A stretch of 64,000 bases of DNA from an uncultured Actinomycetes bacterium (GCA_963716935.1 CAVQUN010000002.1:149830-213829), one strand, 5' to 3'. Counted from the stretch's first letter, positions 5,531 through 29,502 are shown. A program made the numbers and translations. The notes: generated by a model from the letters alone, not told the origin.

Positions 5531-6681
5531 GGGTCGCCCGCCGCATCGAGACGCTCCCGCCGTACCTGTTCGCCGAGCTCGACAAGAAGGTGTCGGCCAA
5601 GCGCGCCGAGGGCGTCGACGTCATCTCGCTCGGCGTCGGCGACCCGGACCTGCCCACGCCCGAGTACGTCCTGGACGCCATGCGCGAGGCGATCGCCGAC
5701 CCGGAGACCCATCGCTACCCGAGCTACTGGGGCTCGGCGGAGTTCCGGGCCGCCGTCGCGAGCTGGTACCGGCGCCGGTTCGGGGTGGAGCTCGATCCCG
5801 AGCACGAGGTGATCGCGCTGATCGGCTCGAAGGAGGGGATCGGCCACATCGCCTTCGCGTACCTGGACCCGGGAGACGAGGCCCTGATCCCGGACCCCGG
5901 CTACCCCGTCTACGGCGTCTCGACCCGCCTCGCGGGCGCCACGCCGGTGTCCCTGCCGATGTCGCCCGATCGCGGCTTCCTCCCGAACCTGTCGTCGGCG
6001 CCGGTGAGCGAGCGGACCAAGCTGCTCTGGCTGAACTTCCCGTCCAACCCCACGGCCGCCGTCGCTGACCCCGACACGTTCGCGGAGGCGGTGGTGTTCG
6101 CGCGGGCGCACGACCTGCTCCTGCTCCACGACGCGGCGTACAGCGAGATCACGTTCGACGGCTACGTGGCGCCCTCGGTCCTGCAGGTGCCGGGGGCGAA
6201 GGACGTCGCGCTTGAGTTCGGCTCGGCGTCGAAGTTCTCGAACATGACCGGGTGGCGCATCGGCTGGGCGGCGGGATCGGCCGATGCGGTCCGTGCGCTC
6301 GGCGTCGTGAAGACCAACCTCGACAGCGGGCAGTTCACGGCGATCCAGCGGGCGGGCATCGCCGCGCTCGACGGTCCGCCCGAGTTTCTGGACGAGCTCC
6401 GTGCCACGTACCAGCGCCGGCGCGACCTCGTCATCGAGACGCTGAACGGGCTCGGCTGGTCGCTCAAGCCGCCGCTCGGATCGTGCTACGTCTGGGCGCC
6501 GGTTCCGCCGGGTCACACGTCCGCGTCGTTCGCGGACCGGCTGCTCGACGAGGCGGGGGTGTTCGTCGCCCCCGGCAGCGGGTACGGCGAGCACGGCGAG
6601 GGGTACGTGCGCCTCTCGCTCACCGTGCCCGACGATCGGCTCGCCGAGGCGATGGAGCGCCTCGGCGGGATCGTCGCCTGA
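5527..6681 (+). CDS. dapL: LL-diaminopimelate aminotransferase (PLP class I/II)
   Basis: LPPYLFAE, LGVGDPD, LIGSKEGIGH, NFPSNPT, DAAYSE, SKFSNMTGWRIG; translationally coupled to dapF. Confidence 0.85.
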   Translation: MRVARRIETLPPYLFAELDKKVSAKRAEGVDVISLGVGDPDLPTPEYVLDAMREAIADPETHRYPSYWGSAEFRAAVASWYRRRFGVELDPEHEVIALIGSKEGIGHIAFAYLDPGDEALIPDPGYPVYGVSTRLAGATPVSLPMSPDRGFLPNLSSAPVSERTKLLWLNFPSNPTAAVADPDTFAEAVVFARAHDLLLLHDAAYSEITFDGYVAPSVLQVPGAKDVALEFGSASKFSNMTGWRIGWAAGSADAVRALGVVKTNLDSGQFTAIQRAGIAALDGPPEFLDELRATYQRRRDLVIETLNGLGWSLKPPLGSCYVWAPVPPGHTSASFADRLLDEAGVFVAPGSGYGEHGEGYVRLSLTVPDDRLAEAMERLGGIVA

Positions 6682-21112: not shown

Positions 21113-21144
21113 GGGCTGCCGTCGCACATCCATCGGATACGGCA

Positions 21145-21183
21145 GGTACTCCCGAGACCCGATTGTCGAGTCTCGGGAGTACC
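21145..21183. terminator. Bidirectional terminator hairpin between convergent genes
   Basis: 14-bp stem GGTACTCCCGAGAC/GTCTCGGGAGTACC. Confidence 0.75.
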
Positions 21184-21200
21184 GACGTTGCATGCGTTCG

Positions 21201-21641
21201 TCAGTGGTCGATGCTTTGCCGAGGGATCAGTCCCTGGTTGACGAGGCGCTTGATGAGGAACGAGTCGCCGTCGAGCGTCTCGGCGGGAACCTGTCCGCTC
21301 GCCACCGCCGCCATCAGCGCGCGGTCCTGCGCCGTGTAGAGCGAACCGACGCTCCTCGGCTCGAGCGTCTCGGCGGGCACGACGCCGGCGTTCACGAGCT
21401 GCTCCGTGGTGCTCGGCTCGAGGGTCTCCGCCGGCACGACCCCCGCGTTGACGAGCTGCTCCATCGTGGTGCTGCTCGCGGTCGCGGTCGACTCGGCACC
21501 GGTCACCTGACCCCCGGAGCCGCCGAGGCTCGCGTACGCGGCGAAGGCGGCGGCCACGACCACGACCACGACGCCCACCCAGAGCCAGGCCCGCGGGGCG
21601 TGGGCCCTGGGAAGGTGCAGCGTTCCCTGACTGGCGCTCAT
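21201..21641 (-). CDS. Membrane-anchored hypothetical protein with internal repeats
   Basis: TM segment, then EQLVNAGVVPAETLEP twice plus two degenerate copies; RBS GGAGG. Confidence 0.75.
   Translation of the reverse strand: MSASQGTLHLPRAHAPRAWLWVGVVVVVVAAAFAAYASLGGSGGQVTGAESTATASSTTMEQLVNAGVVPAETLEPSTTEQLVNAGVVPAETLEPRSVGSLYTAQDRALMAAVASGQVPAETLDGDSFLIKRLVNQGLIPRQSIDH
21357..21470 (-). repeat. 57-bp coding tandem repeat (2 copies)
   Basis: Copies start at 21357 and 21414 and differ mainly at synonymous positions. Confidence 0.8.
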
Positions 21642-21819
21642 CGCGTCCTCCTTCCATCGGGTCCGCCGAACCTACGTCCGAGCGCGACGCCCGTCGGTGC
21701 GCGCCGTCACCGGGGGTCCGTGATCCCTCGCACCGCCGGCTGGTGAAGGTGACCGGGTTGGGACGAAGGACCCCGCACAGGAGATGCGCGGCCCCGACGG
21801 GTTGCGGTACAGTCGGCTC

Positions 21820-21903
21820 GCCGAGCCAGATGACTCGCCGCGAGGTTGAGGGAAAGCTTGGTGCCGAGCCCCGGGGGGCGAGGAGGCTTCCCGGGGCTCC
21901 TTT
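21820..21903 (+). ncRNA. Candidate small RNA
   Basis: -10-like TACAGT (21808-21813); stem GCCGAGC/GCTTGGT enclosing CTCG/CGAG; 14-bp terminator stem (21866-21899) with GAGGAG loop followed by CTTT. Confidence 0.4.
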
Positions 21904-22008
21904 CATCCGACGACCTCCCGTCCGACTCAGTGTCGCGAACGCGAGCCCGGGTTCGTGTGTCGCAACTGCAAGTAGACTGCCAGGCCGGTCCGGCGAGTTG
22001 GGCCGAGC

Positions 22009-22079
22009 GGCGGGGTGGCCGAGTGGTTAGGCAAGGGTCTGCAAAACCCTGTACACCGGTTCAATTCCGGTCCCCGCCT
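22009..22079 (+). tRNA. tRNA-Cys (GCA)
   Basis: Acceptor GGCGGGG/CCCCGCC, anticodon arm AGGGT-CTGCAAA-ACCCT, GGTTCAATTCC T-arm. Confidence 0.96.
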
Positions 22080-22105
22080 CGAGACCGGGTAGCATGCCGG
22101 TCCTC

Positions 22106-22180
22106 GGGCGCTTAGCTCAGGGGTAGAGCGCTTCCTTGACGCGGAAGAGGCCAGAGGTTCAAATCCTCTAGCGCCCACCA
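22106..22180 (+). tRNA. tRNA-Val (GAC)
   Basis: Acceptor GGGCGCT/AGCGCCC, anticodon arm CTTCC-TTGACGC-GGAAG, encoded CCA. Confidence 0.96.
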
Positions 22181-22329
22181 AAGCTGCAGGTCAAGGGTCC
22201 TTTTCGTCGGCCGTCGGCCTCTTCCTCGGCACAGAAGAGCGCTTGTCGGAGCGCTCGGACGTGCAAACGCGCAGGCCAGGCCGTGTGCGGATCTAGCGAG
22301 TCGCGTGCTGCGTCAAGCTCTGAGGGCGG

Positions 22330-22351
22330 AGAAGTTGACGAGAAGTTGACA
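22330..22351 (+). repeat. Putative integrase arm-type sites, left end
   Basis: AGAAGTTGACG-AGAAGTTGACA, 11-bp period. Confidence 0.7.
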
Positions 22352-22398
22352 CGCTGAGTTGGCGTCCGCGGTAAGCCTTCGTCCGTCCGGCTCCGTCT

Positions 22399-22928
22399 AT
22401 GGTCGGGATGGTCATCTCGCAGACGGAGGCGCGGCTGAGCCGGGAGACGACGAACGCAAACGTGAGGTCCGATGCCGCCGGGTGGCTCGTTCTTCGAGGC
22501 GCATGCCGGCGCGATGTACCGCACGATCCTCGCGTACACGGGCGGGCGGGGCGATCGCCGAAGAGGCGGTAGGCGAGGCGTTCTCTCGGGCCGCGACTAC
22601 CACTGCACGGCTGCGGGATCCCGTGGCCTGGCTGTACCGGGTAGCTTTCAACGTCGCCAACGACGAGCTCCGCCGTGAGCGCCGCGAAGGCATCGGCGTC
22701 CGCGACACGGTTCAGGAGCCGCCTGACCTGAGCGAGGTCCTCGAGGCACTGAAGCGACTCCCGCCACGCGAGCGCGCCGTCATGGCCCTCTTCTACATCC
22801 TGGACCTGCCAGTGCGAGAGGTGGGCTCCCGGCTCGGGATCTCGGGCGCCACGGTGCGGGTCCATCTCACTCGCGGCCGCCGGCACCTGGCCGCGCTGCT
22901 GGGCGACGAGGAGGAGACCGACCGATGA
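22399..22928 (+). pseudogene. Frameshifted ECF sigma factor
   Basis: FFEAHAGAMYRTILAYTGGR (frame of 22472) continues as AIAEEAVGEAF..PVAWLYRVAFN..LPPRERAV..TVRVHLTRGR in another frame, shifting near 22550. A second shift near 22485 is possible. Confidence 0.75.
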
Positions 22929-23899
22929 CAGGACGGTGGGAACGGCAGCTGCATCGTCTCCGCGAGGCCCCAGTGCCTCTCGATCGCGTGCGCGAGCGGG
23001 CGCAGCAGCCACCGCGACCGAGCTCGCCGCTGCCGCCGACGCGCGAACGGGTCATCGCGGGGGTCGTTGCGATCGCCGTCTTCGTCGCGGTGGCCGCCTT
23101 CGCTTGGCGCGCGTTCACCACAACAGGTGACGACACGGCCCCGCTCGGGCCACCGCCGGCGCTACCGGCGTCGCCGTTCTCGCTTTGGCTGAGCGCCGAG
23201 CGGGTGCCGCCCGGCCCGGTCGATCTCGTAGCGCTCCTCGTCAACCACGAGGGCGCCGACGCGATCTTCGGCGTCTTCGCAACGGTCGACCGTTGGAACG
23301 GGGACGAGTGGGAACCGTACGGCGAGCTCGTGATGTGCATGGATCACTGGCACTGCACGGCACGCATCCAGCCGCCCGGGGAGATCGACGGCGTTCCTGC
23401 CCTCGGCCTGAGCGCCGAGCCCGAGAGGCCGGGCCCCGTGGAGCGATTCACCACCGGCGGTCTCGACGTCGGGTGGTACCGAATCTCGCAGGAGGCGAAC
23501 GAGGGGATCGTCGCGGCCGCGGTGGTTGAGATCGCCGAGGGCGTCCCCGCCCCGGTGCCCCTCGTCTCCATCGATGCACCCGCCATCTCGGTGGCTCCTG
23601 CCCTGGTATCGCCCGCTGGCGGCGAGATCTACCTCTATCCGTTGATTCCGACCCCAACGGGGGCACAGTCGCGCGAGGATGTGTTGCAGGCGATTCGTGG
23701 GCTGTCCGAGGTCGCGCGGATCGAGCGGTGGGACGGTTCGACGTGGGAGCCCGCGGGGGAGATCCAGCTCATCGCGGCAGCCGACGACCTCGCGCGTACC
23801 GCCGAACTCCCGCCGCTTCCTGAGGGCGAGTACAGGCTCGTCCGCGGCGGCCCGGATGAACGGCACACCGGCAACTTCTGGGTCGCCAACACGACGTAG
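22925..23899 (+). CDS. Single-pass membrane protein, putative anti-sigma/sensor
   Basis: Overlaps the sigma stop (ATGA); cytoplasmic N-terminus, TM segment, extracytoplasmic domain containing CMDHWHC. Confidence 0.7.
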   Translation: MTGRWERQLHRLREAPVPLDRVRERAQQPPRPSSPLPPTRERVIAGVVAIAVFVAVAAFAWRAFTTTGDDTAPLGPPPALPASPFSLWLSAERVPPGPVDLVALLVNHEGADAIFGVFATVDRWNGDEWEPYGELVMCMDHWHCTARIQPPGEIDGVPALGLSAEPERPGPVERFTTGGLDVGWYRISQEANEGIVAAAVVEIAEGVPAPVPLVSIDAPAISVAPALVSPAGGEIYLYPLIPTPTGAQSREDVLQAIRGLSEVARIERWDGSTWEPAGEIQLIAAADDLARTAELPPLPEGEYRLVRGGPDERHTGNFWVANTT

Positions 23900-23992
23900 G
23901 AGGTTCTCGCGAACGCCAAGTGAAACGGTCGCGCCCGAGCTTGCCGGCTCCACGATTTCCGCTAACAACCGGATATCGAGCGCGGTATGCCG

Positions 23993-24850
23993 TTACCAGC
24001 GCTCCCGCATCCCCGTGGGTCGAGGGTTCACCCGGTCCGACCAGAGATCGAACCGGAGATCGACTGACGAGGGGAGCGCCTCGAGCCGTTGATCGGCCAG
24101 GATGGCCTCGACGCACCGAGCCGATCCGCCGACGTACGTCGAGTAGCCGTCGATCTCGGTCGCGACGCACCACGCTCGATCGTTAGACCACCACAGGTTC
24201 GGCGCCTGGCCCAATCCGTTGAACTCGAGCCCGGATGCCGCGTCGATCGAGCCGCGGAAGATGAAGTAGCTGCGCATGGCCCCACCCTCCGGTGAAGGGT
24301 GGATCGCGAGCTTGGGGACGGCATCCAGCTGCGCGGCGGCGCGGCGCGCGCGTTCGAGCTCCGCGCGCTCTCGCGCTCGCACGATGGCCGGGTCTTCGTC
24401 CGGCGACCAGGACAACGAGACGCCGCCACCGAAGAAGCCGTAGCCCTCCCACACGGCGAACCAGCACACCGACGGCGTCGCCGTGAACGTCCAGAGTACC
24501 TCGACGAGCGCTTTGAGTTGCTCACTGGGGAGATCGCCCTCGAGCGGCGATTCGAGACCGGGCACGCCGCTGATGTCCAGGACGCCGACGATGTGCTCCA
24601 GCTGCATCTCTGGATGGACGACGCGTTCGTTTCGTTCCGCGAGCTCGGACCAGCTACGTGGCTCCATGGCGTCGCCCTCGCGTGCGGGGTGGAAGACCCG
24701 GGCGTAGGCGTCGAATCCGGTCGGGATGATCTCGCCGACCCGGACGCCGAGGCGTCGGTCCTGCGGCAGCAGGCGCGGCTGGATCCAGTCCGCCGTCGAG
24801 AGGTCCGTGACGAGCTCGACCCCGGCGGGCACCTCGAACGGCAACTCCAT
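23993..24850 (-). CDS. Hypothetical protein
   Basis: Well-formed ORF with IPTGFDAYARVFHP, CWFAVWEGYG and PNLWW..DRAWCVATEID motifs. Confidence 0.75.
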   Translation of the reverse strand: MELPFEVPAGVELVTDLSTADWIQPRLLPQDRRLGVRVGEIIPTGFDAYARVFHPAREGDAMEPRSWSELAERNERVVHPEMQLEHIVGVLDISGVPGLESPLEGDLPSEQLKALVEVLWTFTATPSVCWFAVWEGYGFFGGGVSLSWSPDEDPAIVRARERAELERARRAAAQLDAVPKLAIHPSPEGGAMRSYFIFRGSIDAASGLEFNGLGQAPNLWWSNDRAWCVATEIDGYSTYVGGSARCVEAILADQRLEALPSSVDLRFDLWSDRVNPRPTGMRERW

Positions 24851-25041
24851 CGGCTACCGAGTGTGACCCGTCCTCGGCGCCAGGTCGAGTGGCGGTTGCG
24901 GCTACCCGCCGGAGGATACCCGGCGCTGGAAACCCGTAAGGGATCGACGTCCGGTGGATGGTGTACGCGTGGCGCCAAGGGTTCGATCACTTCCGGTGTG
25001 CGTGGCTCGGCACGAAGACTGAACGTGCCGTGCCTCCGGGA

Positions 25042-25908
25042 CTAAGGAGGAGGTTCGCTCCCCGTGATCAGCCGGAGGAGCCATCGAAGACGGTCCTCGG
25101 TTCCCACAAATGCGGGCTCGTTCTCGACACCCCACGAGTGATCGTCGACCCCAGACAAGGATCGGAGCTCAGGGTCGTCCATCGCCACGCCCGGCTGGCC
25201 AGGGTGATCGAATCCCGGCCAGACTGATGTCACGACGGCAGCGACCTCGGGAGCGGGATGCATGGGCCAGATCTGGGCAAGCTTCGGGAGGAACTCGTCC
25301 TTCGGTGGAAGCACGAGGGCGTTTCGCACACCCACCCCATCGTCGATCAGGGTCTGATACGCGAAGCACCCGACGTTGCCGGTGATCCGCACGCCGTCCG
25401 GCTCGATGAACTCCGCCGATTGGCTCGCCGGATAGCGGTTGACCCGGTAGGCGCCGATCCAGACGACCGAGTCGAGCAGGGGACGCCGTGTCATGTAGAG
25501 CTCATGGAAGTACCTCGCCGGAATCGTCGCGTGGTCGGTCTCCGGATACACCAGGGATCCCGTGAGAGCCGTCTTGGTCACCCACGTGGCCAAGATGAGA
25601 GCCTCGTCGTCCGTGAGAGGACGGGGTCCCGTCGACGTGATCATCGGCGTCAGGATCGGTGCAACCGCTTGCTCGAGGTCCGACATCCATCCGTTGTTGC
25701 ACAGTGCGCAGACCTTGCGCGCCTTGTGGTCGATCGTGTCGGTTCCCCACACGTTGTGCACATGCTCCCCGTGGTCGGATACACGCGTTGAGCTCCTGAT
25801 CGGGCCGAGGGTCTGGATGTGAGGCACTGTCCAGCGTGGGAACGTGTGCTCCAAGGTCACGGGCCGGCTCCCGCAGAAGACGCACGAACGAGGTTCCGTC
25901 GATGCCAC
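25042..25908 (-). CDS. HNH-like zinc-finger nuclease-domain protein
   Basis: CVFC....TLEHTFPRW ... VCALCNNGWMS.LE N-terminal signature; putative leaderless start (TACGGT-N6-GTG). Confidence 0.7.
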   Translation of the reverse strand: MASTEPRSCVFCGSRPVTLEHTFPRWTVPHIQTLGPIRSSTRVSDHGEHVHNVWGTDTIDHKARKVCALCNNGWMSDLEQAVAPILTPMITSTGPRPLTDDEALILATWVTKTALTGSLVYPETDHATIPARYFHELYMTRRPLLDSVVWIGAYRVNRYPASQSAEFIEPDGVRITGNVGCFAYQTLIDDGVGVRNALVLPPKDEFLPKLAQIWPMHPAPEVAAVVTSVWPGFDHPGQPGVAMDDPELRSLSGVDDHSWGVENEPAFVGTEDRLRWLLRLITGSEPPP

Positions 25909-26010
25909 GGAGTCACCGTACCGGGGCCAAAGGGAAGTTCAACACGCGGTTGGGCTTGGGGACTGCAGGAGGTTGATTCGATCAGTCAAGGCGGATTCGC
26001 CCAACAGCGC

Positions 26011-26032
26011 GTTGACGGAAAGTTGACGGAAG
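26011..26032 (+). repeat. Putative integrase arm-type sites, right end
   Basis: GTTGACGGAAA-GTTGACGGAAG, same core and 11-bp period as the left pair. Confidence 0.7.
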
Positions 26033-26145
26033 GGCGCGACGAGAGGGTGGTCACAGGAATCGAGGGAACGGGGGAGAATGGCCCTGACCAGCAGCTTCAC
26101 CGAGCCAGGGCCATGACCAGCGGCGCTGAGGAGCACCCGGTCATG

Positions 26146-26190
26146 CTTGACGCGGAAGAGGCCAGAGGTTCAAATCCTCTAGCGCCCACC
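26146..26190 (+). repeat. attR-like duplicate of the tRNA-Val(GAC) 3' half
   Basis: CTTGACGCGGAAGAGGCCAGAGGTTCAAATCCTCTAGCGCCCACC, identical to 22135-22179. Confidence 0.92.
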
Positions 26191-26468
26191 GAAAAGCCCA
26201 GGTCAGAACCCCTCATCGGGGACTCCTTGCCAGGATGCGCCGCCTGCTCGGCGACAGCTTGGAAGGAGGAGTCGGAAACACTCGTTCGCACCGCCCTGTG
26301 ACAGTCAGTTTCGATGCTCCTCCGCAACTTCCTGGGCGAGGCCTTGCGCACGAGACGCGGACGTCTGCGGCGCCGGCGCTCGCGGAGACGGACGCGCTCC
26401 TTCAGGAGGCGACGGCGCTCAGCTCGTAAGGGCGATCGGATCCGCGACCAAAGACCGAGGGAACTCCG

Positions 26469-27128
26469 TCACTCGATCTTGTTCTTCACGTCGACCCCGC
26501 CGAAGATCGCCGTGGCGTGGACGTTCAGCGTCGGCGCGTCCTCGGGGAGCGATCCGTCGGCCTCGGTCTTGTCCTCGCAGCCGCCGAGGATCGGCATGCC
26601 GCCGAGCTCGACCCTCCATCCCTTCGGGACCAGGACGTCCACCCCGCCGAACACGGCGAGCGCGTCGACCGAGGCTTGCTGGTCGACGTGGGCCTCGCGC
26701 AGGTCGAGCGTGGCGCCGCCGAAGATGGCGGACACGTCCGCGTGCGTGAAGTGCTCGGAGCGATCCTTGACCTTCGTGCCTCCGAACATCGCGAGCGCAT
26801 TCTCGTGATGCCCAACCTCGACGCGCCGTCGCCACAGGCCCGACAGCACGACGACGCCGATGAGGACGAGCAGCACGGGGCCGAAGAGGTCCTCGTTCGT
26901 CCACCCCTGCTGGTCCGCAAGCAGCAGGAATCCGATGCACACGACGATCCCGGGCCCGAGCGAGACCCTGCGGTCGACCAGCATCCCGATCAGCCCGAGG
27001 CCGATGATGGCGACGGGCCACCACGAGTCGATCCACGCGCTCGACTCGAGCGTCCCGGTGGCGTCCAAGATCCCGAAGACGCCCAGCGTCAGCAACACCA
27101 GTCCGATCCACAGCCGGATAGGCTTCAT
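26469..27128 (-). CDS. LiaF-like cell-envelope stress membrane protein
   Basis: Four TM helices with WWP, followed by a beta-rich domain with repeated A.FGG motifs. Confidence 0.8.
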   Translation of the reverse strand: MKPIRLWIGLVLLTLGVFGILDATGTLESSAWIDSWWPVAIIGLGLIGMLVDRRVSLGPGIVVCIGFLLLADQQGWTNEDLFGPVLLVLIGVVVLSGLWRRRVEVGHHENALAMFGGTKVKDRSEHFTHADVSAIFGGATLDLREAHVDQQASVDALAVFGGVDVLVPKGWRVELGGMPILGGCEDKTEADGSLPEDAPTLNVHATAIFGGVDVKNKIE

Positions 27129-27267
27129 CGCGTCCTCCCACGTCGCACGGTTTCCTTCAGCGTCGCCGCGTGACCGCGATCCCGGCAGGGCCGTTCCGAC
27201 CGCCGGCCGCGGGCCGCAAGGCGGGGGACGACCCGAACGCAACGCCCGCCTCGTCGGTTCATGAGTC

Positions 27268-27774
27268 GTGCCCGTGCTCCAGACTCTCGACGTGACCGCC
27301 GAGACGCCCGAGTTCGGCGATTTCTTCGCCGAGCAGTTCCGCCGCCTGGCCAAGGCCTGCCTCCTGCTCACGGGGAGCGCCGCCGAGGCCGAGGACCTCG
27401 CCCAGGAGGCGATGGCCCGCGTGCTCGAGCGCTGGGATCGCGTCTCGGGCCTCGAGGATCCCGAGGGCTACCTCTACCGGACGGCCCTGAACCTGCACCG
27501 CAGCGCCGTGCAGCGCCTGGCGATGGCGGCGCGGCGGCAGGTGCATCGCGACCACGCGGAGGAGCCGGACGCGGCCGAACGTCGCCTCGATCTGCTGCGT
27601 GCGATCCGCTCCCTGCCGCGGACGCAGCGGGAGGTGCTGGTCCTCGTCGAGTGGCTCGGTTACTCGGCCGAGGAGGCGGGGCGGATCCTCGGCATCGAGG
27701 CGGTCTCGGTGCGGGGCCGGCTCCACCGAGCGCGAGCGACCCTGCGGCAACGTTTCGGAGGGACCGATGACTGA
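27268..27774 (+). CDS. ECF RNA polymerase sigma factor
   Basis: AEDLAQEAM, DPEGYLYRTALN, LPRTQREVLVL, SVRGRLHRAR. Confidence 0.92.
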   Translation: MPVLQTLDVTAETPEFGDFFAEQFRRLAKACLLLTGSAAEAEDLAQEAMARVLERWDRVSGLEDPEGYLYRTALNLHRSAVQRLAMAARRQVHRDHAEEPDAAERRLDLLRAIRSLPRTQREVLVLVEWLGYSAEEAGRILGIEAVSVRGRLHRARATLRQRFGGTDD

Positions 27775-28816
27775 CCTGCGAGACCTGCTCCAGGAGGCGG
27801 TCGGCTCCTTCGAGCCGCGCGGCGACGAGCGGTCGGTCGAGGGCCGCGTCCGGCGCCGCCACCGCCGACAGCAGCGGAGTGCCGCGATCGTCGCGCTCGG
27901 CCTGCTCGCGGCCGGCGGGCTGCTCGCCTGGACCGCGCTCCGGCCTGCGGGATCCACGCTCGGGTCCACCGGATCGGCATCGGGCTCGCCGGGCGCGCGG
28001 GAGATCCTCGTTCCCGACGTCGTCGGGCTGCCGCCCGCCGAGGCGCGGGCGAGCCTGGACGCACTCGGCCTGACCGTGTTCGTCGCGACGGGGACGTCGG
28101 ACCAGGTGGACCCCGGGCTCGTGGCCGCGCAGGAGCCGCCGGCCGGAGTGGCCGTCGCGCAGGGAACGAGCGTCACGATCGTGGTGAACGGGGGTGCGCC
28201 CGTGGCCGCGCCCGTTCCCCTCGGCGATCTCCCCGACGCCGGCGTGGCGATCTCGTCGGCCGAGGGAGTGCAACTCGTCGCCCTCGACGGGACCACCGTG
28301 GCGACGTTGCCCGGCTACGCGCTGGCGGGCAACCCCGGCGCGCCGGGTGTGTGGCTGCAACGGGGGGACGAGTACTTCCTGTTGAACGTCGACGACGGCG
28401 CCCTGGTCCCGGTCGCCGCCGACGAGGCGCGCGCGGTGTTCGACAACGAGGGACCTGGGTTGCCGCCATCGAACATCTCCGCCTCCGGTCAGGTGCGGTA
28501 TACGGTCGAATCACCCTCGGGCATCACGCTGCTTGAGTTCCAGTGGTCGGGCCAGTGTGAGGCGGCAATGGCGTACTGGATCGATCGGGGCTCGGCCCGG
28601 ATCTTGACGGGCGACTCCGATCCCGCGAGCGCGCCCGAGTCGATCGCCCTCGGATGGTCATCCGACGGCGACGCGATCGCGCTCGTCGGCGGGTCGTGCC
28701 GACCGAGCCCTGACCAGCCGGGGATCTACCGGTACTCGGCGCCCGGACAAGGACGGCTCGTGGCCGCGACCGACGCCGAGCCGGTCACGGTCGACGCGTG
28801 GGGGACCGGGATCTGA
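27767..28816 (+). CDS. PASTA-domain single-pass membrane protein, putative anti-sigma
   Basis: Arg-rich N-terminus plus TM segment; VPDVVGL...A...L...GL...VAAQEPPAG..V..GTSVTIVV PASTA repeat; overlaps the sigma gene. Confidence 0.8.
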   Translation: MTDLRDLLQEAVGSFEPRGDERSVEGRVRRRHRRQQRSAAIVALGLLAAGGLLAWTALRPAGSTLGSTGSASGSPGAREILVPDVVGLPPAEARASLDALGLTVFVATGTSDQVDPGLVAAQEPPAGVAVAQGTSVTIVVNGGAPVAAPVPLGDLPDAGVAISSAEGVQLVALDGTTVATLPGYALAGNPGAPGVWLQRGDEYFLLNVDDGALVPVAADEARAVFDNEGPGLPPSNISASGQVRYTVESPSGITLLEFQWSGQCEAAMAYWIDRGSARILTGDSDPASAPESIALGWSSDGDAIALVGGSCRPSPDQPGIYRYSAPGQGRLVAATDAEPVTVDAWGTGI

Positions 28817-28851
28817 CCTCGGCCCGTTTCCAAGAAGAGAAAGGAGCACCG

Positions 28852-29502
28852 ATGTTCCGACCGACCGAACGCACACGAGTTCGCTGCCACGTCACGGCTG
28901 CGATCCCGACGCTGATGCTCATGGTCCTGCTCGCCGCGCCGGCCTCCGCCGGCGTGCTCGGGCGGGCCACGCCGTCGAGCCCGCCGACGCTCTCGAAGCT
29001 CGAGGCCCGGCAGTTCGACCGGTGGTGGAAGGGGCATACGCTGGGGATGTCGCTCGCGCTGGCCGATATGCCCGTGACCCAGCTCCGCGAGGCCGCCGAG
29101 CAGGCCTGGGCGTCGGGGGCGGTGCGGAAGAACATTGCGGCGGTCTTGTTCACCGACTCCGGACAGACCGTCTTCGCGAGGAACGCCGCCGGGGGCGAGG
29201 GGCAGCCGAGCCCGTACGTCACGTACTTCACGAACAACCCGAGCCAGCTCGCGGAGCTCGGCGCCTATCTCGCCGACCATCCCGAGTACGTCGGGGGTCC
29301 GGGCGGGATGCAGGACGAGCTCTTCGGGATGTTCACCGGGCTCCGCGAGTCCTATCTTGCGTCGCTCGGCCTCGTCGAGGTGAACGGCCTGATCGTCGAC
29401 CCGCGCGAGCCGCGGCTCTCGCCGTATCTCGTCGCGCTCCTCTTCGGCCCGCCGAGGCCGCTGGCGCAGCCGGCGGTGGCGCTCAACGTGGGGAGCTCAT
29501 AG
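28852..29502 (+). CDS. Secreted hypothetical protein
   Basis: RBS AAAGGAG; signal peptide ending APASA. Confidence 0.7.
   Translation: MFRPTERTRVRCHVTAAIPTLMLMVLLAAPASAGVLGRATPSSPPTLSKLEARQFDRWWKGHTLGMSLALADMPVTQLREAAEQAWASGAVRKNIAAVLFTDSGQTVFARNAAGGEGQPSPYVTYFTNNPSQLAELGAYLADHPEYVGGPGGMQDELFGMFTGLRESYLASLGLVEVNGLIVDPREPRLSPYLVALLFGPPRPLAQPAVALNVGSS

Follow-up and report, generated by a model that had tools for sequence, protein, structure and literature searches.

Can a chromosomal islet that encodes no recombinase still be moved by site-specific recombination, or is it the scar of an element that has lost the means to leave? This question is raised by a 64,000-nucleotide stretch of an uncultured Actinomycetes bacterium (GCA_963716935.1, CAVQUN010000002.1:149830-213829; hereafter the window), in which a 4-kb islet lies between two copies of the 3' part of a tRNA-Val(GAC) gene. 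A first-pass annotation, made from the DNA alone, had proposed a non-autonomous cassette mobilised in trans rather than just a decayed prophage. We consider it probable (about 0.6) that the islet is a non-autonomous integrative cassette resembling a cis-mobilisable element (CIME), with four cargo genes between the complete left and right attachment sites (attL and attR) of a tyrosine-integrase system directed at the anticodon loop and 3' half of tRNA-Val(GAC).

The ends of the islet carry the first part of the argument. Positions 22135-22182 and 26146-26193 form a direct repeat of 48 nucleotides with one mismatch and a spacing of 4011, whose first 45 bases are exact. This exact 45-mer, the core, occurs twice in the whole assembly of the source genome (G000; 3,335,688 bp in 11 contigs), once at each end of the islet. 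Its first base immediately precedes the 7-nt anticodon loop (TTGACGC) and its last is the discriminator base, which is the layout of a tRNA-targeting attachment site, whose core is the 3' part of the tRNA from the anticodon loop on. In the tRNA-Val(GAC) gene, the portion from the anticodon loop on, including the encoded CCA, is now supplied by the islet as attL. The islet-free tRNA-Val on contig C22 of G010, a genome of another species in the same genus, ends in CCCACGA without CCA.

Inside both ends lie repeats arranged like the arm-type sites of a phage attachment site (attP). Tandem GTTGAC-N5-GTTGAC occurs twice in the whole genome with both strands counted, and both occurrences are in the islet and on the plus strand (22334-22350 and 26011-26027), at distances of 155 bp from the left and 119 bp from the right core. 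The single GTTGAC is found 866 times in the genome, and AAGTTGAC 27 times, three of these in the islet. CAGGTCA follows both cores (22187-22193 and 26199-26205), while CTGACCAG at 26084-26091 and a further TGACCAG at 26114-26120 precede the right one. All three elements of the proposed architecture, namely the core duplication from just before the anticodon loop, the co-oriented tandems of 11-bp period and the motifs beside the cores, are therefore borne out, and their combined observation is far beyond chance. Putative arm-type sites are repeated on both the P and the P' arm and are conserved in relatives. The proposal that excision would rebuild a contiguous P arm-core-P' arm also holds: the att architecture is intact, and such units exist in G166, in G152 and in 14 of 27 metagenome loci with a partial core.

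Heterobivalent tyrosine integrases targeting tRNA genes provide a mechanistic parallel, with the attP sites of mycobacteriophage L5 and phage lambda as examples. As in these, the presumed core runs from the anticodon loop to the 3' end of the tRNA, direct-repeat pairs of arm type are spaced about one helical turn apart on both arms, and attP would span about 350 bp. Unlike them, the islet site, with its putative arm sites, has no accompanying integrase. The arm repeat GTTGACG further resembles the anticodon-loop core TTGACGC, a likeness that is not known from L5 or lambda.

Conserved DNA of this kind could instead serve the host as a promoter or operator, or encode a structured RNA with a tRNA-like 3' half at its end. 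TTGAC indeed resembles a -35 hexamer, GGAAC-N17-GTC in the right arm resembles promoters of the extracytoplasmic function (ECF) type, and ECF sigma genes recur as cargo. However, a promoter scan of 21900-26500 gives no sigma-70-like site, the two tRNAs are the only Rfam matches, and RNAalifold on ten arms yields -15 kcal/mol with a covariation term of +0.8 and compensation in 3 of 30 pairs. Moreover, the tandem is without exception paired with a tRNA-Val core, which it precedes at one end and follows at the other; this layout fits att arms and not a transcription unit. We regard the promoter or RNA explanation as very remote.

Whether the islet has moved can be assessed from a second copy, on contig C32 of G010 (a 4.4-Mb metagenome bin with 9% contamination). 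Between the two genomes, the islet (22135-26190) differs at 23 of 4056 positions (0.57%) and is thus 99.4% identical, whereas its flanks are 84-94.5% identical: 139 of 868 positions (16%) are substituted on the left (21141-22008) and 167 of 3023 (5.5%) on the right (26468-29490). The two tRNA genes (22009-22134) show no substitution in 126 positions. Over 40 kb more of the window, identity to G010 ranges from 82 to 96%, and no piece reaches 97%. The DNA beyond the right core also differs. The right core of G010:C32 is 44 bp long, ending in CCCAC, and continues with GAAC, whereas the core of G000 precedes its own 241-bp trailer, the first ~20 bp of which resemble the tRNA-Val trailers of G003 and G005. 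In G010:C32, a 22.5-kb polysaccharide-synthesis cluster that is absent from G000 directly follows the core, and the LiaF-like flank is reached only after this cluster. Thus, an islet about ten-fold less diverged than the better-conserved flank, a right border exact to the core and different DNA beyond it fit, and point to, a recent acquisition by horizontal transfer that would have used the att sites. On C22, the second G010 contig, two unrelated genes separate tRNA-Val from the LiaF flank; islet, second core and GTTGAC tandem are all missing.

Two features of these surroundings are recorded in their own right. The cluster (G010:C32:19873-42322, composed of L019:3873-18001 and L020:1-8322) encodes glycosyltransferases, Wzy/Wzz-like proteins, a flippase, a UDP-GlcNAc 2-epimerase, a DegT aminotransferase and three LuxR-type regulators; an integrase is absent from it, as is another core at the distal end. 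Just 5' of the tRNA pair, two tandem 57-bp repeats, 86% identical, lie at 21355-21468 within a 146-aa open reading frame (ORF; 21201-21641, minus strand), and nowhere do G000 and G010 diverge more than in the flank holding them (16%).

Homologues of the arms place the islet in a family. Our comparison set comprised 294 genomes of the same order, among them the unpublished G059, G292 and G129, complemented by a pattern scan of a species-genome collection (~185,000 genomes), by IMG/VR and by 68 soil-metagenome loci. Within the order, GTTGACGNNAAGTTGAC with at most one mismatch is found in 28 of the 294 genomes (36 matches, compared with 5 for the reversed control). A BLAST search with the right arm, core excluded, produced matches beginning at the tandem in G127, G029, G147, G007, G292, G166, G222, G171, G148 and G059, and a weak one in G129. 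Another weak match, on G089:C50 (L046), has neither tandem nor core and was dropped from the alignment and the counts. Twelve right arms, including those of the three unpublished genomes, align as a 185-bp unit from GCGTTGAC to the last base of the core. Conservation within the unit follows the presumed sites: the majority share is 0.94 in the arm repeats, 0.88 in CTGACCWG, 0.87 in GTGACCAGCGG and 0.86 in the core, compared with 0.59-0.73 in the spacers and 0.46-0.48 outside the unit. Arm identity is discordant with taxonomy, being 0.62 between G007 and G000 of the same genus and 0.84 between G007 and G222 of another.

Left arms show a similar distribution. The pattern AAAAGTTGACGAAAAGTTGACGCGACGCG occurs ~70 bp after tRNA-Val in G151, G146, G121, G123 and G292, and after a distal core in G152 and G166, where it completes the contiguous units mentioned above. 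Among the 68 soil-metagenome loci with the left-arm pattern, 17 have a whole tRNA-Val upstream, 27 a partial core starting at tRNA position 25-32 (with the right-arm tandem at most 200 bp upstream in 14 of the 27) and 3 a shorter core; 17 lack a core despite room for one, some of them through insertion of an insertion sequence (IS), and 4 have no room for it. Core and arm lie 63-72 bp apart in 46 of 47 such loci; the distance is 150 bp in L097, which is of the G000 type, and both L097 and G127 contain a homologue of the G000 P' arm at this distance. The right-arm pattern was found at 18 loci of the species-genome collection, nine of which have the tRNA-Val core, all in Actinomycetota/Actinomycetes metagenome-assembled genomes. 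The remaining nine, including Arthrobacter, Leuconostoc and Prevotella, have no tRNA-Val core and were taken as chance. No match was obtained in IMG/VR.

Cargo turns over between these conserved arms. The comparison of copies that the first-pass annotation had called for shows plain turnover in G222 (2.6 kb; PIN and APH genes), G171 (3.3 kb; PD40, ECF sigma, PD40) and G127 (4.1 kb; an inserted IS110, an 84.6% homologue of the 285-aa islet protein, and PD40). With the islet of G166 at about 10 kb, family cassettes are very small, ranging from 1.7 to 10 kb, and the ORFs that follow left arms are ordinary genes. Tandem arrays of cores are common: G032 has the tRNA and three more cores, and arrays also occur in G059, G166, L097 and L129. 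tRNA-Val(GAC) is thus a general hot spot of accretion in the order.

Several side observations concern these family members. On G032:C16 (L024/L025), G059:C32 (L027/L028) and G018:C1 (L036), the tRNA is followed within 4-23 kb by as many as three additional partial tRNA-Val cores. ECF sigma genes flanked by PD40/WD40-like beta-propeller genes adjoin the right arm across several genera, in G171 (L044:6928-9722), G148 (L045:1930-5166), G029 (L039:9926-11770) and G127 (L038:9648-10826); the G000 cargo differs from this type in having an unrelated ECF sigma factor with a membrane partner. An IS110-family element (DEDD_Tnp_IS110 and Transposase_20) sits inside the P' arm in G127 (L038:12377-13429) and at L134:8098-9153 (copies L145 and L095). 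In two arm subtypes its insertion point is exactly CAGG^TCA, a few bases after the tRNA-Val core and equivalent to about position 22190 of the window, a pattern suggestive of target specificity, with the IS parasitising these att sites. Directly after the left arm of the contiguous unit on G166:C52 lies a 98-aa HTH_17 (excisionase/MerR-like) gene (L042:8058-8351), the only gene of recombination-directionality type seen beside these sites.

With the family in view, the opposite answer to the opening question can be weighed: the islet may be an inert deletion remnant of an element or prophage at tRNA-Val that has lost its integrase and transfer genes and is now plain chromosome, its near-identity to G010 stemming from homologous recombination (with the identical tRNA genes as left-hand and the 45-bp core as right-hand homology) or from an assembly chimera. 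A broken sigma gene, the lack of a cognate integrase in the G000 assembly, the erosion of cores and arms among relatives, a left border of the identical block that is not placed and a 288-aa cargo protein matching phage family phrog_38451 (function unknown) all agree with such decay, as does the derivation of CIMEs themselves by decay (PMC5704250). Against it, homology for recombination on the right amounts to only 44-45 bp, because the downstream DNA differs completely. Site-like arm motifs are kept across genera at majority shares of 0.87-0.94, compared with 0.46-0.48 around them, unlike in a neutral scar, and cargo varies among copies with common arms. Moreover, since none of 11 arm-bearing contigs carries an integrase, the remnant explanation needs many independent losses. 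A larger integrase-bearing element with the same arms, which would make the islet a deletion remnant and, according to the first-pass annotation, refute its proposal, is found neither in the 294 genomes nor in the species-genome collection or IMG/VR; this refutation mostly fails. We therefore judge decay into plain chromosome to be unlikely, though by no means negligible.

Integrases are missing from the vicinity of nearly all copies of the family. PF00589 matches at six places in G000, none of them in the window. Two appear Xer-like by score. The other four adjoin tRNA-Arg(TCT), tRNA-Met, tRNA-Ser(TGA) and tRNA-Glu(CTC), the last two being fragments, and none is associated with tRNA-Val or a GTTGAC tandem. 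The 11 arm-bearing contigs without PF00589 are those of G010, G007, G059, G127, G029, G166, G222, G171, G147, G292 and G148; the contig of G032 likewise has none, and G018 was not searched for integrases. A Pfam search of 81 ORFs from ten metagenome loci detects no tyrosine or serine recombinase, while DDE 'rve', Mutator, IS110 and IS4 transposases are present. Many contigs are short, so that a missing nearby integrase is weak evidence. Finally, a blastp search of 346 ORFs from the 68 metagenome loci with a panel of five integrases, whose sensitivity is limited, matched only L097 and L105.

L097 is one exception. Beyond its 424-aa integrase (PF00589, 6.2e-20) lie, in this order, an ISL3 fragment and a P arm of like design with two copies of AAGTTGCC, followed by a first core; a 3.6-kb cassette then separates this core from a GTTGAC P arm, which leads into the second core and a P' arm of the G000 type. 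A 75% homologue of this integrase with an internal TGA exists in G070. In G005, the element that separates tRNA-Val from a decayed islet encodes a 444-aa integrase; the islet still has a P'-like trailer and a truncated right arm. This integrase (L023:6169-7503) was rejected as the helper: the arm repeats of its element are of CCGTTTC type, with no GTTGAC tandem. Integrases also stand directly beside tRNA-Val(GAC) in G048, G050 and G055, again without the tandem. The order thus has integrases that use tRNA-Val(GAC), and cases of tandem accretion with them are on record. The L105 locus stems from an unrelated, lower-GC organism, with a different tRNA and the opposite orientation, and was not counted as a family member. 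It carries AAGTTGACGC tandems at 144-165 and 5916-5937, 4.4 kb upstream of and directly after a 445-aa tyrosine integrase gene, whose family possibly reads a similar arm motif.

The recurrent lack of integrases also admits an integron-like capture locus, in which the cassettes never had integrases and a single enzyme, whose gene lies at another genomic locus or on a plasmid, moves them, each with an attP-like unit of its own, into and out of a standing variable array at tRNA-Val. Core-separated tandem arrays (G032, G059, G166, L097, L129), contiguous arm-core-arm units in 14 of the 27 partial-core loci, cargo of ordinary metabolic and regulatory genes and the absence of tyrosine and serine recombinases from the 81 metagenome ORFs all speak for it. 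No conserved integrase was found co-occurring with the arrays, however, and G000 has an intact cassette with no candidate integrase. L097 and G005, moreover, hold ordinary integrase-bearing elements at the same site, so that conventional accretion suffices. We rate such a capture locus as distinctly improbable. Also rather improbable, if slightly less so, is a broader version in which tRNA-Val(GAC) anchors a standing integron-like array and a dedicated integrase elsewhere shuffles recombinase-less cassettes with ~350-bp arm-core-arm sites within and between species, the IS110 element being parasitic on the same sites.

The cassette reading itself has to bear several points that weigh against it. 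The left border of the low-divergence block is hidden and cannot be placed, because both tRNA genes are identical in G000 and G010, and the G010 bin, 9% contaminated, contains the locus in two versions, so that an assembly chimera is conceivable. The 1-bp difference at the G010 attR junction argues for a real junction rather than a chimera; homologous exchange via the 45-bp core remains a conceivable source of the near-identity. Decay is real in the family, as eroded cores and arms in relatives demonstrate (a 25-bp core in G127, a 27-bp core in G029, a truncated arm in G005), and the islet's own sigma gene has two frame-breaking deletions in G000. No integrase with GTTGAC arms was found in any of the collections: L097, the sole case of an integrase beside this att design, has GTTGCC repeats, and the best G000 match to its integrase is 33-35% identical and lies beside tRNA-Met. 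Public reads provide no direct sign of excision. Twenty soil and sediment runs were covered as Logan contigs (best word share 0.36), four of which (X1, X2, X5 and X7) were aligned; their contigs are low-depth pieces (150-577 bp, depth 2-9), and all joints have only 21-31 letters on the shorter side, so that no circle or empty-site junction is usable and the runs speak neither for nor against excision.

If the islet is a CIME-like cassette, its mobilisation might proceed as follows. A helper integrase, supplied by another element and equipped with an arm-binding domain, would bind the GTTGAC arm sites as well as core sites around the 7-nt anticodon loop (TTGACGC). Recombination of attL with attR would then release a 4,011-bp circle with an attP of ~350 bp and re-form an intact tRNA-Val. 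Transfer between cells would require the helper, the likeliest route being co-excision and transfer with a neighbouring integrase-bearing element. Since the G000 assembly has no cognate integrase, the G000 copy is probably immobile at present and may be stranded currently. The claim of a non-autonomous cassette that is not a mere decayed prophage is strengthened by the family, the cargo turnover and the near-identical G010 copy. Its mobilisation strictly in trans is not: co-excision in cis with an integrase-bearing neighbour fits the tandem arrays at least as well.

Table 1. Features of the islet and its tRNA-Val(GAC) target site (window coordinates).
Feature	Position	Strand	Evidence and remarks
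tRNA-Cys(GCA)	22009..22080	+	ARAGORN; Rfam RF00005, 64.7 bits; host gene directly 5' of the target tRNA
tRNA-Val(GAC), integration target	22106..22180	+	ARAGORN; Rfam, 70.9 bits
Left core copy, 45 bp (attL crossover region)	22135..22179	+	Exact 45-mer; anticodon loop to discriminator base
P' arm	22180..22352	+	CAGGTCA 22187-22193; inverted anticodon-arm copy 22216-22243; two AAGTTGAC at 22332-22350, 11-bp period
ECF sigma-factor gene, disrupted	22462..22928	+	Pfam Sigma70_r4_2, 1.2e-14; partial r2
324-aa protein	22925..23899	+	ORF; start overlaps sigma stop (ATGA); sub-threshold DUF6087 only; 98.8% identical in G010
285-aa protein, no family assigned	23993..24850	-	84.6% aa identity over 285 aa inside the islet of G127 (other genus)
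288-aa Cys-rich protein (CxxC...CxxCNNGWM)	25042..25908	-	phrog_38451 (unknown function), 3e-10
P arm	26008..26145	+	Two GTTGAC 26011-26027; GGAATCGAGGGAAC 26056-26069; CTGACCAG 26084-26091; ATGACCAGCGG 26113-26123
Right core copy, 45 bp (attR)	26146..26190	+	Exact 45-mer
241-bp trailer between attR and LiaF-like gene, only in G000	26191..26431	.	Unmatched in G010:C32 and G010:C22

The four cargo genes (Table 1) contain no integrase, excisionase, replication or transfer family in Pfam, NCBIfam, PHROGs and PADLOC, in line with the first-pass annotation, which had noted the lack of the first three. Phage structural, replication and lysis genes are likewise missing from the islet, for which PHROGs returns sigma-factor families and phrog_38451 only; the residual phage genes expected of a decayed prophage are thus not found. 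An ECF sigma factor with a partner protein had been proposed among the cargo. Pfam recognises the sigma factor on ORF 22359-22928; a different frame (ORF 22472-22678) holds the N-terminal part of region 2. Aligned with G010, the G000 gene shows two deletions, of 14 bp (after 22487) and of 2 bp (after 22554). Both missing segments are also present in soil contigs of runs X1 and X2, and once they are restored, the reading frame is open from a GTG at 22462. Since neither deletion occurs in G010 or the soil contigs, the sigma gene is broken in G000, where alone it is a pseudogene (or an assembly error). Its partner, the 324-aa protein, is a probable membrane-anchored anti-sigma factor, as judged from position only.

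The other two proteins remain without assigned function. The 285-aa protein has no Pfam, NCBIfam, PHROGs or PADLOC family, and its Atlas neighbours are hypothetical proteins. The 288-aa protein has no Pfam, NCBIfam or PADLOC family, and its 26 homologues are all unnamed. It had been described as HNH-like, which is not upheld: a weak Atlas lead is the only pointer to such a nuclease, and Pfam, NCBIfam, Foldseek and VIA-align give no match of this kind (AlphaFold model pLDDT 78.9; best Foldseek TM 0.18; best VIA-align Z 3.6). As a novel recombinase it was rejected as well: it matches no Pfam or NCBIfam family and no known fold convincingly, and its homologues are absent from other members of the islet family, so that it cannot be the recombinase of that family. 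The cargo thus consists of a regulatory pair of ECF sigma and presumed anti-sigma factor and two function-unassigned proteins, with no resistance or virulence genes.

Among known systems, integrons are defined by intI next to attI and by attC sites that act as folded single strands. Like integron cassettes, the islets are promoter-poor, recombinase-less units with a recombination site of their own, stacked in arrays and exchanged between genomes. Unlike them, they are anchored at a tRNA gene, their sites look like double-stranded arm-plus-core sites and no integrase is adjacent; intI, attI and Pc with attC cassettes are not found, the window containing no integrase and the arms no support for a folded structure. 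Actinomycete integrative and conjugative elements (AICEs) such as pSAM2 and SLP1 carry int, xis, rep and tra. The islet shares with AICEs and with genomic islands at tRNA 3' ends the Actinomycetota host, integration at a tRNA 3' end and bounding direct repeats of the tRNA end, and differs from AICEs in having none of the four genes.

The closest match is to CIMEs. In the streptococcal ICESt1/ICESt3 family, these keep attL and attR while the genes for integration and transfer are gone, and they are described as originating by decay of integrative and conjugative (ICE) or integrative and mobilisable elements (IME), as accreting with incoming elements and as being transferred in CIME-ICE tandems (PMC5704250). 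The islet agrees with CIMEs in both structural respects, retaining attL and attR and lacking int, xis and transfer genes. Its family sits in tandem arrays with related elements, which by analogy makes co-excision with an integrase-bearing neighbour plausible, and G005 and L097 provide examples of tandems with an integrase-bearing element. In contrast to CIMEs, it resides in uncultured soil Actinomycetota rather than Firmicutes, targets tRNA-Val(GAC) and has no parent ICE or IME with the same arms: the order genomes, the species scan and IMG/VR contain no such integrase-bearing relative, and the integrase element of L097 has variant arms. The family further stands apart by its large size, arms conserved across genera and very small cassettes. 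A CIME-like class in such a lineage and at such a scale is not described in the limited literature searched.

Integrase-less islets are usually dismissed as scars. The low divergence of this one, the differing right junctions and the conservation of its arms across genera provide sequence-level evidence that recombinase-free cassettes still move between species of an uncultured soil lineage. If the helper is found, the ~350-bp att unit would represent a defined system in which to study the building of variable regions by non-autonomous cassettes at the tRNA genes of Actinomycetota, and possibly a tool for site-specific integration in these bacteria.

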